Positions 2,953 to 12,042 of a stretch of DNA of 64,000 nucleotides are shown here, one piece after another (position 1 is the stretch's first letter; every line of letters starts with the position of its first letter). A program made the translations under genes and the position numbers. Below the pieces are notes generated by a model, which was not told the DNA's origin, searched no databases, and saw nothing but the letters and a program-made list of their open reading frames with translations. The DNA comes from a virus. The stretch is taken from positions 1 to 64,000 of IMG/VR virus record IMGVR_UViG_3300028835_002196; one strand, written 5' to 3'.

Positions 2953-3291
2953 TTATTTGAATAATTTATACGGGATATTACCCTTTACTCTGTACTCTTT
3001 TGAATTATTCCATGAGAAATATTTTGGTTCCAGTTTCTTTTCCATGGATTTAGTAACATCAACACGACAGGGGATCCTGCGAATATAACAATACGCTCCC
3101 AGGGGAACGTCAGGTTTTCCTTTAACCGTGAAAACAAGCATTGTTGTTTTGATGGTTGAGGTTTTCTCATGGTATTTGATTCTTTCAAATTTCCCACAAT
3201 AAGCCTTTGTTTTGATCAGTTTTCCTTCGGGGTACCGGCTAACAGCACACCCGGACAGGAGAATAAAAAGGATTAATATTTTAGTTTTCAT
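2953..3291 (-). CDS. Putative lipoprotein
   Basis: Likely true start MKTKILILFILLSG-C (lipobox); the longer ORF call overlaps the upstream gene. Confidence 0.6.
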   Translation of the reverse strand: MKTKILILFILLSGCAVSRYPEGKLIKTKAYCGKFERIKYHEKTSTIKTTMLVFTVKGKPDVPLGAYCYIRRIPCRVDVTKSMEKKLEPKYFSWNNSKEYRVKGNIPYKLFK

Positions 3292-3631
3292 TTTTATTTT
3301 TATTTTCCAGAGCAGCTTGAATCCTGAACCATGCCATTTGACTTTGATCAACAGCCTTTTTAATAGCCTCGATTCCAACTGTTCCTGTGCGATAGATATG
3401 TGTATAGTTAAGTGCCCAGCCCGGGGGATTTTGTAAAATTTCCAGATCTCCCACGCAAAGTTGTCCCGGAGCATAATATTTTGTAACACCATTCTTTCGT
3501 ACATAAGCCCATAGGCCTTCGCCACATCTGATTTCAGGAACCTCTTCGGCCAACACCTTAGCAACCGCAGGAGCAAAGATCAGCCCCAGGGTAACTACAC
3601 TTGTTTTTTTAAAAAAATCTCTTCTATCCAT
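3281..3631 (-). CDS. Small protein with twin-arginine-like signal peptide
   Basis: MDRRDFFKKTSVVTLGLIFAPAVA. Confidence 0.65.
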   Translation of the reverse strand: MDRRDFFKKTSVVTLGLIFAPAVAKVLAEEVPEIRCGEGLWAYVRKNGVTKYYAPGQLCVGDLEILQNPPGWALNYTHIYRTGTVGIEAIKKAVDQSQMAWFRIQAALENKNKNEN

Positions 3632-3857
3632 TGGGCCGGTTTTTAAAACATTCATTATAAGTTAATGGATATTGCATAATAAGATCATTATTTGTAATAA
3701 GACCAAATCCTGTTCTTCTACACTTAGGCACGATAACCCCATACAATACTTTTTGGGGCTTTATAGCCTTTTTAATAACCCCCGCAACAACCGCAGGAGC
3801 AATTATCACTCCCAGGGATGCAATGCCTATTTTTTGAAAAAACTTTCTTCTATCCAT
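3624..3857 (-). CDS. Small protein with twin-arginine-like signal peptide
   Basis: MDRRKFFQKIGIASLGVIIAPAVVA. Confidence 0.65.
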   Translation of the reverse strand: MDRRKFFQKIGIASLGVIIAPAVVAGVIKKAIKPQKVLYGVIVPKCRRTGFGLITNNDLIMQYPLTYNECFKNRPNG

Positions 3858-4060
3858 TACTCATTCATATAGGATAAATCCTCATGATCAGATAATGATT
3901 CCAATAAAAGATCTAGTGTTCTACAACCAAACCGGTCCTTTTCTCCAACATATAATATATAATTATAAGTAAGATCGTCATGTATTCTTATAGATACATT
4001 CTTTAGACCTTTTTCTTTAGCTGACTTAAAAATATCAGCTATCACTTTTACTTTTTCCAT
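3857..4060 (-). CDS. Hypothetical protein
   Basis: ORF in operon; likely start MEKVKV. Confidence 0.5.
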   Translation of the reverse strand: MEKVKVIADIFKSAKEKGLKNVSIRIHDDLTYNYILYVGEKDRFGCRTLDLLLESLSDHEDLSYMNE

Positions 4061-6757: not shown

Positions 6758-7003
6758 TTATTTTGAATTTTTTACTATATCTGTTAATAATTTAATACCG
6801 TACGCATCGGACTTATTTATTCGCAGGTCAAATATTCCATGACCGGTTTCCCTTGTATCAATACAAAGCCTGTGTGTATTGAAATCATTATGATGCTTCA
6901 CTGGTTCGGGCAATTCTCCAACGCACATTTTTTCTTGCAAGCATCGTTTTGTGATGCAGTCTTTATGTTTACACCATTCTGGACGTTTTCTGATATCAGC
7001 CAT
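6758..7003 (-). CDS. Cys/His-rich hypothetical protein
   Basis: Several Cys and His residues; in operon. Confidence 0.55.
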   Translation of the reverse strand: MADIRKRPEWCKHKDCITKRCLQEKMCVGELPEPVKHHNDFNTHRLCIDTRETGHGIFDLRINKSDAYGIKLLTDIVKNSK

Positions 7004-7006
7004 AGT

Positions 7007-7318
7007 TTATTTTGTTAATTCAATTATTGTTACTTTTTCATTGATTCCGGCTTTGCAGGGAGTGTTATCTTTAAATTTTGTCCAAGTATAATGATTAGAA
7101 TCATTCTTAACCAATATCCACATCTGGTTTTTAACCTTCCGTTTTCCATTACTCACCTCAATTACTCTTTTTGAGGCTTCGTATTCTTTCATTGCTTCAT
7201 TATAATCTTTTTCACAAAAAGCTATTTTATACCAATTCTCTCGTTTTGGCTTTTTCATCTTGTAATACTCAAATTTGACTTTGCCGTCTATTAATCGTAT
7301 GTATCCGGGCTTTATCAT
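7007..7318 (-). CDS. Hypothetical protein
   Basis: ORF in operon. Confidence 0.55.
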   Translation of the reverse strand: MIKPGYIRLIDGKVKFEYYKMKKPKRENWYKIAFCEKDYNEAMKEYEASKRVIEVSNGKRKVKNQMWILVKNDSNHYTWTKFKDNTPCKAGINEKVTIIELTK

Positions 7319-7433
7319 TGTTCCTTAATTAGTCGTTTTTTAACTAAATAATATAATTAATGTAACACAAATCATAAAAATGATTGTAGCGATTATACAT
7401 CCCGTATTTTCGTCTTTTTCTATTTTCATAGCT

Positions 7434-7853
7434 TTATTGTTGTCTGATTATTTGCCGGTAATATATATACCCGTCCCTGTGATTTTCCTCCTGCTCTAAG
7501 TCATCATAGAGTTTTTCCCATCTTGCTTTCCTGTTCTCGAATACAAAAACTCCTATGCTCAGGGTAACCCCGGCCACGTACATTGTCCCAACTTTCCTGG
7601 TAGTAGTTTCAAAGCTTCCTTTCCTTTCATCGCTCACTATGATCATATGGTTAATAAGAAATGTACCAAGTAAAACTGCTCCTGCTCCATAGTGGGTTGG
7701 ATGCCTTCCTTCTATTACCGGAACCGGCTTATACTGCATGTACTCCATGTTCTTGTAGAGATTCGAGAGTGATGATGTGTCTTGCAAACTCATCTGGGCA
7801 CTTGTATTGAATACCAATAAAAATGCCAGTACTATTAAAGAGAGTGTTTTCAT
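7434..7853 (-). CDS. Membrane protein with signal peptide
   Basis: MKTLSLIVLAFLLVFNTSA signal plus two hydrophobic segments. Confidence 0.6.
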   Translation of the reverse strand: MKTLSLIVLAFLLVFNTSAQMSLQDTSSLSNLYKNMEYMQYKPVPVIEGRHPTHYGAGAVLLGTFLINHMIIVSDERKGSFETTTRKVGTMYVAGVTLSIGVFVFENRKARWEKLYDDLEQEENHRDGYIYYRQIIRQQ

Positions 7854-8212
7854 AACTTTTGTTCCTTCATATATTTAACAAAATGACCAAAATTTTCCTG
7901 TATTAACTCGGCACATTCATTTATGGTACCCTTGAATCTTAATCGTTCTTTGCAATAGTTCTTGATGAAGTCATATGCTTCTTTTTCCTGTTTAAAGCAC
8001 CTGTAACCGTTAAAAAATTTCATGACACCATTCAGCTCCTTACAGTCTGTTATCTCACCGACCTTCTCTCCCGTGCCAGCTTTTCCTTTTGTAATGTAAG
8101 GAATAATATTGCCGTTTTTCATCGTCCTGGGGTATCCCGGGCCCATACCAAGGTATTCCCCTGTTTCTGAATCGAATGTTCCATCTACCAGATCATCTGC
8201 GATTTCTCCCAT
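7850..8212 (-). CDS. Hypothetical protein
   Basis: MGEIADDLVDG...GEYLG..PGYPRT N-terminus recurrent in phage hypotheticals. Confidence 0.55.
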   Translation of the reverse strand: MGEIADDLVDGTFDSETGEYLGMGPGYPRTMKNGNIIPYITKGKAGTGEKVGEITDCKELNGVMKFFNGYRCFKQEKEAYDFIKNYCKERLRFKGTINECAELIQENFGHFVKYMKEQKL

Positions 8213-8233
8213 GATGTTAGTCTCCTTTCATAA

Positions 8234-8644
8234 TTACTTTTCAAATTCAATAACAGCGTTTAATACATCTGTATATCTTTCAAACCAACCCATCATCATT
8301 TTACGCATGAGCCCAAAATCCTCACCTTTTGCATATAGTCCAATAATAGGAATACCTTTAGCGTAAGCCATTCCGCACTCGGCTGCTGCGTCTTTCCCGG
8401 AAGGAGAAATATATATAACCAGATCAGATTTCATCACTCCTTCGGAATCATACATAAAAGACTGATTTGATTCAGTTGAATTTACCCAGGTTTCAAAATC
8501 AAATTTTTTTGTAATATGATTATGATTTTCACCATAATTATTTTCGACAAACGATAATACTTCGTGACCTGCTTCACGCAGAAAAACTGTAAGCATTTCT
8601 ACAGTATGCTGATTTTTCCAAGAGCTTGCTATATATATTTTCAT
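8234..8644 (-). CDS. Nucleoside 2-deoxyribosyltransferase-like protein
   Basis: MKIYIASSW...D..GVMKSDLVI...SGKDAAAECGMAYAKGIPII matches the NDT/RCL fold motifs. Confidence 0.65.
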   Translation of the reverse strand: MKIYIASSWKNQHTVEMLTVFLREAGHEVLSFVENNYGENHNHITKKFDFETWVNSTESNQSFMYDSEGVMKSDLVIYISPSGKDAAAECGMAYAKGIPIIGLYAKGEDFGLMRKMMMGWFERYTDVLNAVIEFEK

Positions 8645-8670
8645 AATCCCTTTTCAATAATTAATTTTAA

Positions 8671-9070
8671 AAAACTAAACTTTACTTTACTATACAACGC
8701 CAGACGGAACTACACGGTACTATGCGATACACCACTAAACTCAATATTTTATTTAATTCCTTCAATTCTAATTATAAAACTATACTTTACTATACGCTAC
8801 CTCACACCACAAGACCTCACAATACTCAACATCACCCTACTCGACGATACGTCACACCACCATACAGCACTCAACTCAATATTTTATTTAATTTCTTTAA
8901 TTCTAATTATAAAACTATACTTTACTTTACGCTACCTCACACCACAAGACTTCACGATACTCAACAACACTCTACTTGACAAAACTTTACATCACAAAAC
9001 GTAACTTTACAACACTACACCCTACCCTACAAAACCACACAACACCATGCTCAACAGCACGGTACATTAC
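8671..9070 (-). repeat. Three pentamer-periodic arrays (GY-NNN)n separated by two 35-nt linkers; putative guide RNAs
   Basis: Plus-strand NNNAC/NNNGC units: 8671-8740 (14), 8776-8875 (20), 8911-9070 (32); linkers 8741-8775 and 8876-8910 are 33/35 identical. Confidence 0.9.
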
Positions 9071-9642
9071 TTAAATTCTTTAATTTTTTCAGCAACAAAT
9101 CTTCCAAACATACCATTGCAAGTAGGCCTGAAACTTCCAATCCCACAATGCGTACCAGCATATTTCAACACATCTTCTATTGTTGGCTTTGTAATCGTAT
9201 CATTATCAATCCACAATTCAAAATCAACCTTTAAATTGAGCCACTTGGGCCTGATCACGATAACTCTTGCCCCGGCTTTACGATTCCAGACGCTTCGCTT
9301 ATCTATAATATCCCAGGGGGGAAGCCATATTTTTTCCGGTTTAACAAAGAACATAGCTGCAACAATATTTTTCATAGACTTACGGCTATTTCCAACCTTC
9401 GCCTTCAAGTATGCTCCTGCATTGATCATTGCTCCACGCAAATGTTCGGATGGTAAATAATGCTTTTTTTCCTTCATATCGTAGTAAGAATGAAACTCAG
9501 CCCTGACATTATCAGGTTGAGAAACCTCTGGTCGTTCAATGATCGCACCACGTCTTTTTTCCCATTCGTCAAGGGTTTCGTCATCCATGCGATGTTGCAT
9601 GTATGGCGTTGTGCCAATAATTTCTACTTTGTACTTCTTCAT
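9067..9642 (-). CDS. Stand-alone Cas7/RAMP-like protein (Vipr-like), 191 aa
   Basis: Start MKKYKVEIIGTTPYMQH at 9642; YLPSEHLRGAMINA helix motif; C-terminal G-rich loop GIGSFRPTCNGMFGRF typical of RAMPs; flanked by pentamer arrays. Confidence 0.75.
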   Translation of the reverse strand: MKKYKVEIIGTTPYMQHRMDDETLDEWEKRRGAIIERPEVSQPDNVRAEFHSYYDMKEKKHYLPSEHLRGAMINAGAYLKAKVGNSRKSMKNIVAAMFFVKPEKIWLPPWDIIDKRSVWNRKAGARVIVIRPKWLNLKVDFELWIDNDTITKPTIEDVLKYAGTHCGIGSFRPTCNGMFGRFVAEKIKEFK

Positions 9643-9657
9643 AATATTTGTATTAGT

Positions 9658-9787
9658 TAAACAAAACTTTACTTTACTAGACGACACATCACTGAACTGT
9701 ACTTCACAAAACAATACGCTACTGGACGCTACTTGACTAAACTGCACCCTACTCTACTATACCCCACATTACGCCACAGAACGAGAC
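9658..9787 (-). repeat. Fourth pentamer-periodic array (26 x GT-NNN), upstream of the RAMP-like gene
   Basis: taaac aaaac tttac tttac tagac gacac ... gccac agaac gagac; all 26 units end in AC on the plus strand. Confidence 0.9.
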
Positions 9788-9794
9788 TTTCTGG

Positions 9795-9992
9795 TTACCT
9801 GCTTCTTTGTATTTGTTCTCCATATATAATAGCTGATGCCATTATTATCTTACGTGTTAATCTAATATCCTCGGCTCCCGGTGAAATACATTTATCGTAT
9901 GTATGATTCATCCAATTCATAAGTCCCCTTTTCATAAATCTGCCACATAAAGGGCACCGAGCCATAGCAGGAAAAAAAATATCGTTCAACAT
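9795..9992 (-). CDS. Small zinc-finger-like protein
   Basis: CPLC...H...C. Confidence 0.45.
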   Translation of the reverse strand: MLNDIFFPAMARCPLCGRFMKRGLMNWMNHTYDKCISPGAEDIRLTRKIIMASAIIYGEQIQRSR

Positions 9993-10004
9993 TAGAGACT
10001 TTAA

Positions 10005-10472
10005 TTATTTATTCAATATTCTATCAATCTCCGCGACACAAAAAGCAGCAGCTGCGGCCAGGCGATCAATTTCTGTTTTGTCGAAACGGATATGATCACA
10101 GCCGGCTTGATTCCAATCTACAGGAAAACTAGCCAGCCTGGTTAAACAAGCTATAGCAGCCTGCTTAAGTTCTCCATTGCTATTATGCTTAACATCAAAA
10201 TAAACGGTTTTCCCGTGCTCTTCGATCATTTCTATTCTTTCCCGGACAACCATTTCAAGACCGGTATTTACTTTATTAGGACCAGGTCTTTTATTAAATC
10301 TTTGAATAAAGGGGATTTCCTGATAAACGTATTTTCTCATAGCAGAAAGCAGGGCCCGTCTCAGTTCGACAGAAAGTCCTAAATATTTAATATTTATTTT
10401 TTTCAATTCTGCTGTTATTATTTCTACTTTATCCATTGTTTTTACAATATCATTATTTTTCGTGTTCGGCAA
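10005..10472 (-). CDS. Conserved phage hypothetical protein
   Basis: ER..IE.HG....D..H.NGEL..AA...RL..AAA..VAEIDR pattern common in phages. Confidence 0.6.
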   Translation of the reverse strand: MPNTKNNDIVKTMDKVEIITAELKKINIKYLGLSVELRRALLSAMRKYVYQEIPFIQRFNKRPGPNKVNTGLEMVVRERIEMIEEHGKTVYFDVKHNSNGELKQAAIACLTRLASFPVDWNQAGCDHIRFDKTEIDRLAAAAAFCVAEIDRILNK

Positions 10473-10662
10473 AAAATTCAGTTAATCCATCAACAAACAA
10501 CTTAGCCCCGTGATCCCTGATATAGTTAACATCTTCATCCAGATTCTCACCTTTTACCCCGGCTATATAAAATTTAACCTCACCTACATCATTTTTAATA
10601 GCAACTATACCGATAGTCTGAATCCCGGTCATCCAGTACACGCCTAAAACTTCTGATGCCAT
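10453..10662 (-). CDS. Hypothetical protein
   Basis: ORF in operon. Confidence 0.55.
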   Translation of the reverse strand: MASEVLGVYWMTGIQTIGIVAIKNDVGEVKFYIAGVKGENLDEDVNYIRDHGAKLFVDGLTEFFAEHEK

Positions 10663-10678
10663 GATTAATCCTCCGCAA

Positions 10679-11050
10679 TTATTCGTTTACAATGCAAAAA
10701 ATCTCAGTTATCATTACTTCATTTTTTGCATTTTCCATTTGACTATCAGACGAACTTATTTTAAAAATTTTTCCATTCAGATCAACATGTAATTCTCCAT
10801 GCTCATCAACCACAATCCTTAAACTTTTCAATATGGTAGCTACTTTAGCCTCTATTTCATCCAGTTCCTTTAAAGCCTTATTCTTATTTTCTAATTTCGT
10901 ACTTCTGGCCTCAGCATAGACAAATACGTTCTGAAGTAAGTCTACTACATTTATTTCCTCGCTTTTATTCATAACTAATTTTGTAAATTCGTTAAAAATT
11001 ATTCTAAAAATATTCCTAACACCTAAAGCGATGGCTGCTTTGCCTGCCAT
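10679..11050 (-). CDS. Hypothetical protein
   Basis: ORF in operon; start uncertain. Confidence 0.5.
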   Translation of the reverse strand: MAGKAAIALGVRNIFRIIFNEFTKLVMNKSEEINVVDLLQNVFVYAEARSTKLENKNKALKELDEIEAKVATILKSLRIVVDEHGELHVDLNGKIFKISSSDSQMENAKNEVMITEIFCIVNE

Positions 11051-11277
11051 TCACCAAATTTTTTCCACTCGATCATATCACAAACGGCACGGAGCATACT
11101 TACTAATGCCCAGGATCTTATTCTCTCCAAACCTATATACTTTAACTGTTTTTTACTATACTTAATTATAACAGGATCAACCACTCCCATTCTCAATTCA
11201 AATTTTCCCGAAGAAGTATCCTCCACCGGATCAAACCCTGTTAATACAACAATCGCTGTTAACATTTGTTCATTCAT
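11023..11277 (-). CDS. Hypothetical protein
   Basis: ORF in operon. Confidence 0.5.
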   Translation of the reverse strand: MNEQMLTAIVVLTGFDPVEDTSSGKFELRMGVVDPVIIKYSKKQLKYIGLERIRSWALVSMLRAVCDMIEWKKFGEWQAKQPSL

Positions 11278-11294
11278 AACATCAAAAGCGTTAG

Positions 11295-11597
11295 TTAATC
11301 ATCAATTTTGACCGTTACTGTCATGCAGTCTGGTTGTACCCATGCAAAATACCGCCCTGTGGGCAGGGGCAGGAAATCAGCCGTGCTGTATTCCCCGCTT
11401 TTTCCTCGTAAATCATGCTTGTGTTCATTAAGCATGAAGCCCATGATCCTGTTATCACCAATTATAAAATGCGTGTATTTACCAACATCGTTATCCGCAG
11501 CTATCTTTTCACGTTCTTCTGCCGTTGATGCCTGCGGGCAGTCAAATTCACCCAGGAACTTGTCAAAATAGTAAAATTTTATAGTTTCCTCTTTCAT
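11295..11597 (-). CDS. Hypothetical protein
   Basis: Likely start MKEETIKF. Confidence 0.5.
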   Translation of the reverse strand: MKEETIKFYYFDKFLGEFDCPQASTAEEREKIAADNDVGKYTHFIIGDNRIMGFMLNEHKHDLRGKSGEYSTADFLPLPTGRYFAWVQPDCMTVTVKIDD

Positions 11598-11602
11598 AAC
11601 CG

Positions 11603-11809
11603 TTATATTATTCCGTGGTATGTTCGATCTACCCATTCTATGTCAGCCCAATTCTCAAGTAAAAACGGACCAATAGTATAATATCCTATGAACTTCTGCT
11701 TGATTTTTACATGCTCAAACCATCTTATCTCGTTTCCTATTACCTTTTTAAACCATAAGAATTTGTTAATAATTCTGGTCTCACTGTACATTCTGGCTTT
11801 TTTTCTCAT
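11603..11809 (-). CDS. Hypothetical protein
   Basis: ORF in operon. Confidence 0.5.
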   Translation of the reverse strand: MRKKARMYSETRIINKFLWFKKVIGNEIRWFEHVKIKQKFIGYYTIGPFLLENWADIEWVDRTYHGII

Positions 11810-11811
11810 AA

Positions 11812-12042
11812 CTAACTGTTTCTGTTGAATATCATAACCGTTTCTAACCTGAAAACCTGGAATTCATCGCAATCATAATTCTTTAACCCTTTCTCCTCAA
11901 ACAAGTACCGTAACCTATTGTAGGAGATTCCAGTCTTCTTCGAAAATGTACGCATATCTGTCGCACCCAATTCAAAATCACCGACCTTATCCCTGTAAAT
12001 ATACAGGTACCGGGAATACAATCTTATTATAGCCTCTCCCAT
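11812..12042 (-). CDS. Small HTH-like protein, first gene of the leftward operon
   Basis: MRTFSKKTGISYNRLRYLF HTH-like segment; promoter upstream. Confidence 0.5.
   Translation of the reverse strand: MGEAIIRLYSRYLYIYRDKVGDFELGATDMRTFSKKTGISYNRLRYLFEEKGLKNYDCDEFQVFRLETVMIFNRNS

Follow-up and report, generated by a model that had tools for sequence, protein, structure and literature searches.

Four tracts of 5-nt GYNNN units, 92 units in total, flank a small gene, vipr, on the minus strand of a 64,000-nt stretch of viral DNA (the window; positions 1 to 64,000 of the 76,246-base IMG/VR record IMGVR_UViG_3300028835_002196). Read along the minus strand, the order is a gene, array 4, vipr, array 3, a linker, array 2, a second linker, array 1, and a further gene; all neighbouring genes lie on this same strand as the arrays. 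The features are as follows.

9658 to 9787, minus strand: array 4, the upstream guide-RNA (vrRNA) tract, 26 GYNNN units, the last four of which (9658 to 9677) are A/U-only
9067 to 9642, minus strand: vipr, 191 aa, its stop codon within the first unit of array 3
8911 to 9070, minus strand: array 3, 32 GYNNN units, tail at 8911 to 8930
8876 to 8910, minus strand: linker 2, 35 nt, AT-rich, closing with AUUGA, 5 nt that keep the phase of array 2
8776 to 8875, minus strand: array 2, 20 units, tail at 8776 to 8795
8741 to 8775, minus strand: linker 1, 35 nt, a copy that matches linker 2 at 33/35 positions
8671 to 8740, minus strand: array 1, 14 units, including five A/U-only terminal units at 8671 to 8695
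8645 to 8670, minus strand: a 26-nt stretch between array 1 and the ATG of the next gene, as read from the sequence
8727 to 8980, no strand assigned: tandem duplication of 135 bp, present in 1.9 copies with 91% matches (Tandem Repeats Finder)

Array 4 begins 7 nt after the stop codon of the preceding ORF and ends 15 nt ahead of the vipr ATG. These four tracts are the sole GYNNN arrays in the virus record, while shuffled genomes gave 0 to 1 runs of at least six units. Window positions 7000 to 12000 returned no match in Rfam at E values up to 1. On the plus strand, positions 8671 to 9070 fall into one 5-nt frame, in which all array units read NNNAC, save three that read NNNGC, i.e., GYNNN on the minus strand. 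An earlier note on this DNA had described two AT-rich 35-nt linkers separating three arrays, and this description is exact: each linker is precisely 35 nt long, and the two differ at two sites only (C/T, plus-strand positions 19 and 23). The 5-nt phase that the note had seen running through both linkers is likewise borne out by the single NNNAC frame.

The 191-aa vipr product was aligned by phmmer with PDB 36pp_D, the "SUSP1 Vipr protein," with an E value of 9.8e-8 and residues 1 to 187 placed on residues 1 to 190. The product also matches phrog_4652, is 30% identical over its full length to proteins of Felixounavirus (Felix O1-like phages), and has no match in Pfam. With an AF2 model built from 13 homologs (pLDDT of 72.7), the top Foldseek matches were Cmr4/Csm3, with an E value of 3.5e-6. 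By homology and predicted fold, the vipr product is a Cas7-like RAMP and a homolog of SUSP1 Vipr, that is, a small RAMP with a single RRM, a G-loop, and a thumb. VIPR, first described in 2026, is a CRISPR-like RNA-guided DNA-silencing device made up of the Vipr RAMP and of vrRNAs in which 5-nt repeats are followed by an invariant 3′ tail (10.64898/2026.04.26.720920); type II VIPR is the subject of bioRxiv 10.64898/2026.04.26.720920 and.720927, of 10.64898/2026.10.15.759431, and of PDB entry 36pp.

Related loci carrying vipr number 97, from three sources.

IMG/VR: 14 loci, 47-64% identity
Metagenome contigs: 80 loci, 50-65% identity
Bacteroidota MAG contigs (Cyclobacteriaceae, Draconibacterium, Bacteroidales): 3 loci, 43-60% identity

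GYNNN arrays were present in 94 of 95 related loci, with 221 on the vipr strand versus 3 on the opposite strand. Across the family, the median distance from the vipr stop codon to the start of a downstream array is 5 nt, and such arrays often begin within the stop codon; upstream arrays end a median of 22 nt ahead of the vipr ATG. These regularities bear on a reading in which the tracts and linkers act as DNA, serving as protein-binding iterons, an origin, or a packaging site. The 5-nt period, which equals half a helical turn, would suit such an element. Against it stand the strict strand bias with vipr, the homology of the adjoining gene to a protein whose solved structure includes such RNA, and the fact that the arrays accompany vipr across 97 loci with no other gene in common, and we regard a DNA element as extremely improbable. 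The locus is a phage VIPR system of a GY/NNN ("YNNNG") repeat variant. VIPR is a known kind of system, to which this locus adds a further example rather than a new kind. Only GGY/NN type II VIPR systems have been characterised so far, the discovery of VIPR being months old, and the locus and its 97 relatives now allow a compact comparison within the GY/NNN variant.

The locus resembles the type II VIPR systems of Escherichia phage SUSP1/Felixounavirus and a Pseudomonas fulva prophage, in that a single small RAMP is encoded by a phage. Like SUSP1, the locus has one upstream tract and three downstream tracts of 5-nt units on the gene strand, with fixed and hypervariable positions alternating. 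As in type II, where a GGTAT unit stands before a pseudoknot, the tracts end in a putative constant 3′ element, and in type II, too, a conserved segment stands between successive tracts. In SUSP1, the one upstream and three downstream tracts yield four vrRNAs of ~100 nt with an invariant 3′ tail, and the RNAs mature from a transcript, made from a plasmid, of which vipr is also a part (10.64898/2026.04.26.720920). The proposal of the earlier note that the arrays are discrete guide units thus has a direct counterpart in the four separate vrRNAs of SUSP1 and, by this analogy, would hold for the window as well.

The accessory gene and the repeat depart from the canonical picture. VIPR loci "typically" include an accessory gene, vap, according to the VIPR preprint; unlike in SUSP1, the 97 loci retain none of the window's eight neighbouring ORFs next to vipr. 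Because the wording is "typically" and states no absolute requirement, the absence of vap does not exclude the locus from VIPR. The second departure is the repeat itself, GY plus NNN here but GGY plus NN in SUSP1: the canonical GGY/NN consensus does not describe the window arrays, in which only G-Y is fixed and the base before G is variable. According to the methods of the VIPR preprint, some VIPR types use YNNNG, NNNGG, or NNNNG repeats in place of YNNGG; since a YNNNG consensus appears there, we treat GY/NNN as a variant rather than as grounds for exclusion.

The protein alignment offers a possible counterpart to this change of repeat. In SUSP1, Asp177 is the reader of the first G in GGY and is essential, while R138, R179, and W178 hold the second G and the pyrimidine. 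The SUSP1 contacts R138, R179, and H17 are kept in the clade, and W178 is replaced by F or Y. Asp177, in contrast, aligns with Ser170 of the window protein, and Ser occupies this position in 13/13 clade members aligned. The change from Asp177 to Ser would fit the loss of the first G in the GY/NNN repeat. By homology with SUSP1, Vipr protomers would bind the GY of each 5-nt unit and so cover the repeat tracts. It is conceivable, though doubtful, that the guides of this clade are delimited without a structured handle, a few A/U-only repeat units and a following "WU" start unit sufficing to fix both ends of every vrRNA, and that the freed first base of the repeat serves as a third pairing base per protomer. 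If true, this would amount to a three-base code per protomer, unlike the two-plus-skip code of SUSP1.

The repeat units themselves would mark where one guide ends. On the minus strand, array 3 ends in GTAAA GTAAA GTATA GTTTT, array 2 in GTATA GTAAA GTATA GTTTT, array 1 in GTAAA GTAAA GTTTA GTTTT, and array 4 in GTAAA GTAAA GTTTT GTTTA. The near-identical A/U-rich ends that the earlier note had attributed to all four arrays are therefore real: in the last four units, A or T occupies 48/48 variable positions, versus 59% in the array bodies (p ~1e-11). The same note had taken this shared 3′ tail for a constant element, and the tail recurs at the homologous loci: throughout the 97, A/U-only units make up the final three or four of an array. 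When 180 distinct array ends were aligned on the last GY unit, the AT share of the last four units was 0.76, 0.78, 0.85, and 0.90, versus 0.62 to 0.67 inside arrays; no rise in AT toward the 5′ ends of arrays was seen in this family profile. The tail consensus is GT-W-W-A GT-A-W-A GT-T-T-W, then A/T, and the commonest last units are GTTTT, GTATA, GTAAA, and GTTTA. Identity over the last three units was 0.53 within a locus and 0.42 between loci, versus 0.27 to 0.32 for body units in both comparisons. The tail is therefore a semi-constant element of the whole family, while the rest of each array is hypervariable.

Unlike the 40- to 60-nt pseudoknot that forms the SUSP1 tail, the tail here consists of three or four A/U-only units, and in the window no structured tail or pseudoknot is predicted in its place. 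By analogy with SUSP1, the A/U-only block may be the functional equivalent of the invariant 3′ tail, and the tail units would have a role other than pairing. Near gene starts, A/U-richness could in part also serve translation initiation in Bacteroidota-type hosts.

The 5′ border is marked in register with the repeat. Of 183 array starts, 84% have T at position −4 and 93% have A or T at position −5, so the unit ahead of the first GY reads WU-NNN in phase with the repeat. Both window linkers end in AUUGA, which is such a degenerate "WU" start unit. Because the start-aligned profile has no conserved A of a −10 hexamer, we take WU as a feature of the repeat register and not as a promoter box. Among internal units that depart from GY, 92/136 start with WT. 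Together, the tail and the WU unit would define the guide border, and the linker is an optional slot, free in length and content. Some related loci dispense with linkers altogether: arrays of 70 to 96 units (L009:2119-2473, L014:3089-3518, L084:1994-2473, and L093:1685-2034) are divided into sub-arrays of ~11 to 15 units, with nothing but A/U-only units and then a single TTNNN or ATNNN unit in between.

The likeness of the two window linkers has a simple origin. They are copies within one 135-bp duplication, so their equal length and their identity are one event and not two observations, and one linker has a 1-in-5 chance of a length that is a multiple of 5 nt. When the copies are laid side by side, the duplicated block comprises 14 units, a linker, and ~3 further units, and the 14 units at the 3′ end of array 2 copy, with divergence, the 14 at the 3′ end of array 3. 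A recent duplication copied one 14-unit guide and its linker, and the guide later diverged at its variable positions only. The 33/35 identity had been read as conservation, a reading that fails here: the variable positions duplicated along with the linker reach a comparable 36/42, which 33/35 does not significantly exceed (Fisher p of 0.28). Nor does the phase extend to the family as a rule, with 19/71 linkers being multiples of 5 (p of 0.10). Beyond array 1, the first 17 nt of the 26-nt stretch at 8645 to 8670 match the 3′ half of the linker at 13/17 positions and end in the same TATTGA, and judged by this resemblance the stretch is probably a truncated third linker.

Array 3 may consist of two abutting guides of 18 and 14 units. 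Its units 17 and 18 (8981 to 8990, minus strand) read GTAAA GTTTT and have the look of an internal tail, and the 135-bp duplication begins at the very next unit; the suggestion of two guides arises because this tail-like pair sits exactly at the start of the duplicated 14-unit block. Arrays of the family have a median of 14 units.

One could go further and hold that the linkers are functionless passengers of the duplication and that the three tracts stay on one RNA, each bearing its own Vipr filament. The lack of a difference between 33/35 and 36/42 suits this reading, as does the fact that the linker sequence was not found elsewhere in IMG/VR. We nevertheless judge it very unlikely, since vrRNAs in the characterised systems are separate RNAs of ~100 nt (10.64898/2026.04.26.720920), relatives carry ribozymes, terminators, and hairpins at the same position, and the family median of 14 units per array argues for defined unit sizes.

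The related loci show how variously the slot between guides is filled. Their 73 distinct linkers are 8 to 82 nt long with a mean AT content of 76%; 36 are predicted to be essentially without structure, whereas a folding energy of −5 kcal/mol or better is predicted for 28. In the closest relatives the linkers are unrelated and 8 to 39 nt long, and others have none. For the window linker itself no structure is predicted, its folding energy being 0 kcal/mol, no better than shuffled sequences, a further difference from SUSP1. It has 0 exact matches in IMG/VR, even with its two variable positions left open. Conservation of the linker at homologous loci, one of the expectations of the earlier note, is thus contradicted: the relatives' linkers are unrelated and range from 0 to 82 nt. 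As a boundary or processing site, which the note had also proposed, the linker fares better, in that relatives place such modules at this position, but neither its sequence nor its length nor its phase is conserved. The linker is upheld only in the weak sense of a border spacer.

Several of the modules found in relatives have recognisable forms. In L003, seven 47-nt hairpin linkers are near-identical although they stand between unrelated arrays, and one of them has a fully compensated stem. Linkers of 46 and 67 nt in L097 (after the arrays near 3093) form a predicted 12-bp minihelix with the loop motif GGTTCGATTCC, which we take to be the look of a tRNA acceptor/T-arm; ARAGORN called no tRNA at these linkers. 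The minihelix may be a handle for tRNA-processing enzymes. Linkers at L094:1552-2062 and L011:2237-2409 contain a minimal twister-P1-like core (UAA-N4-CC, GUCCAAGYC, AAA-N4-GAGG). Their Rfam twister-P1 scores, 36.6 and 30.8 bits, fall short of the gathering score (67.2) for want of P3. The two helices of these elements are 98% paired, with compensatory changes at 5/8 pairs, a level reached by 0/500 shuffles. A literature search found no paper joining vrRNA and twister.

The L003 linkers speak for a reading in which the linker stays in the mature vrRNA as an unstructured 3′ tail or handle of ~35 nt, needed for Vipr loading or capping and equivalent to the 40- to 60-nt pseudoknot tail of SUSP1 vrRNAs. 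Their near-identity between differing arrays, with one compensatory stem, is joined by the type II arrays, each trailed by its conserved tail and by a further conserved segment of ~35 nt; on the strength of these two cases, the linker is a maintained element in some relatives. In the window, however, the linker has no predicted structure, arrays 1 and 4 go without one, the closest relatives have unrelated linkers or none, and the identity of the two copies is explained by duplication. A retained handle is therefore unlikely here.

The linkers of L037 point in another direction. They are 50, 60, and 51 nt long and form GC hairpins whose stems differ, with a run of seven T after each, i.e., intrinsic terminators; terminators between arrays imply separate transcription units in that phage. 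This re-initiation in L037 is among the points in favour of an internal promoter within each linker, as the earlier note had considered, which would make arrays 2 and 1 independent transcription units. In addition, array starts in many relatives are preceded, a few nucleotides upstream, by AT-rich sequence containing ATATT-like motifs, and in the window the minus strand offers −10-like hexamers in and at the edge of the linker, TATAAT (8906 to 8911) and TAAAAT (8882 to 8887). Such hexamers are always present in AT-rich DNA, so a non-canonical or phage-specific promoter may lie in the linker. The linker has no sigma-70-type promoter and no intrinsic terminator. It also lacks the Bacteroidota-type TTTG...TAnnTTTG and TAnnTTTG; the nearest TAnnTTTG lies within vipr at 9105 to 9112, which corresponds to the chance rate. 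No further copies of the linker motif occur within the window, which speaks against a recurrent phage promoter. Moreover, the start-aligned profile shows no conserved A at hexamer position 2, many relatives' linkers are too short for a promoter at 0 to 16 nt, and arrays abut ORFs, vipr included, throughout the family. Taken with these findings, an internal promoter in the linkers is improbable, and that part of the earlier note is not supported.

What we consider the fairly probable account is that the downstream region is a guide-RNA array in which borders are set by the repeat units, and in which AU-rich linkers are cut out of one precursor to give separate vrRNAs. Judging from the gene layout, one transcript would run through array 4, vipr, and arrays 3 to 1; a single precursor that is later cut is the simplest reading because there is no room for separate promoters and terminators around the arrays. 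Vipr would then polymerise on the GY units of this precursor, as its homology with SUSP1 suggests. The 3′ border of a guide would be set by its three or four A/U-only units, and the 5′ border of the next guide by the degenerate WU-NNN unit. Host single-strand endonucleases would probably cut the uncovered linkers and trim back to the protein-covered tract. The expected products are separate vrRNAs of roughly 70, 100, 160 (or 90 plus 70), and 130 nt. A search of sequencing runs for this DNA returned one DNA run, probably of the source sample, and no RNA run.

The comparative set indicates that the conserved border signal is a short block of A/U-only repeat units and not a folded tail, and that phages differ in how they use the slot between guides: some leave it empty, and others place there an AU-rich spacer, hairpin, terminator, tRNA-like helix, or twister-like ribozyme. 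Such knowledge helps to annotate the ends of vrRNAs in phages from metagenomes and to design minimal multi-guide arrays. A terminator-like hairpin, with 10 pairs followed by a U-rich run, can be drawn at window positions 9042 to 9065 (minus strand) from the first units of array 3. It lies right past the vipr stop codon, includes the exceptional GC unit GCATG, and could attenuate read-through or be a product of chance.

The architectures named in the VIPR preprint, which distinguishes seven VIPR types, include staggered (linker-less) arrays and arrays interspersed with hammerhead ribozymes. The linker-less arrays of the relatives, with borders inside the repeat tract, resemble the former. Some relatives also have a ribozyme-like element between guides, as in the latter, but it is twister-like and not hammerhead. 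The window, with its plain AU-rich spacer, has none of the architectures named there. By analogy, the account proposed above also recalls class 1 CRISPR systems (Cas6/Cas5d), in which variable guides alternate with constant separators and a precursor is cut into units; a filament of a Cas7-type RAMP on the guides is common to both, and Cas7-type proteins are the best structural matches of the Vipr model. Unlike CRISPR, the locus has no repeat-spacer units, cas genes, adaptation module, or evident dedicated processing nuclease, the constant part is a few degenerate 5-nt repeat units, and the guide is non-contiguous.

Potential targets were sought locally by BLAST of 186 unique guides of the clade against 383 kb comprising the phage genome and the related loci. 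In this set, matches with skips of 0, 1, or 2 were all no more frequent than with unit-shuffled guides. A guide of L027 matched the phage's own genome at 75450, an AT-rich match at chance level. A guide of L037 (array at 1000) matched L033:2541-2562 at 19/21 bases in contiguous triplets, which in this small local database is again at chance level; the matched segment is the YMQHRMDD-coding part of the vipr gene of another phage, and the match stops at the tail units. Targeting of vipr by VIPR guides has been reported in the VIPR preprints. Exact-pattern scans of IMG/VR with parts of arrays 2/3 and 4 were empty in four of five cases, and the fifth returned a single GC-rich phage sequence that did not extend past the pattern, about as expected by chance. 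A codon-like signal in the guide triplets was also discarded: the depletion of TAG and CTA does not extend to TGA, and in-frame stops are present, so there is no evidence of codon alignment.

Some genes near these arrays deserve a brief mention. In the window, the gene just past array 1 (8234 to 8644, minus strand) resembles nucleoside 2-deoxyribosyltransferases (phrog_12607, E value of 1e-13; Pfam PF05014 below the cut-off) and is not kept beside vipr in relatives. In L011, a 121-kb viral contig, a tRNA and a tmRNA gene lie at 3508-4026, ~450 nt downstream of vipr; the tmRNA scores 90.8 bits in Rfam, and ARAGORN gives its tag peptide.
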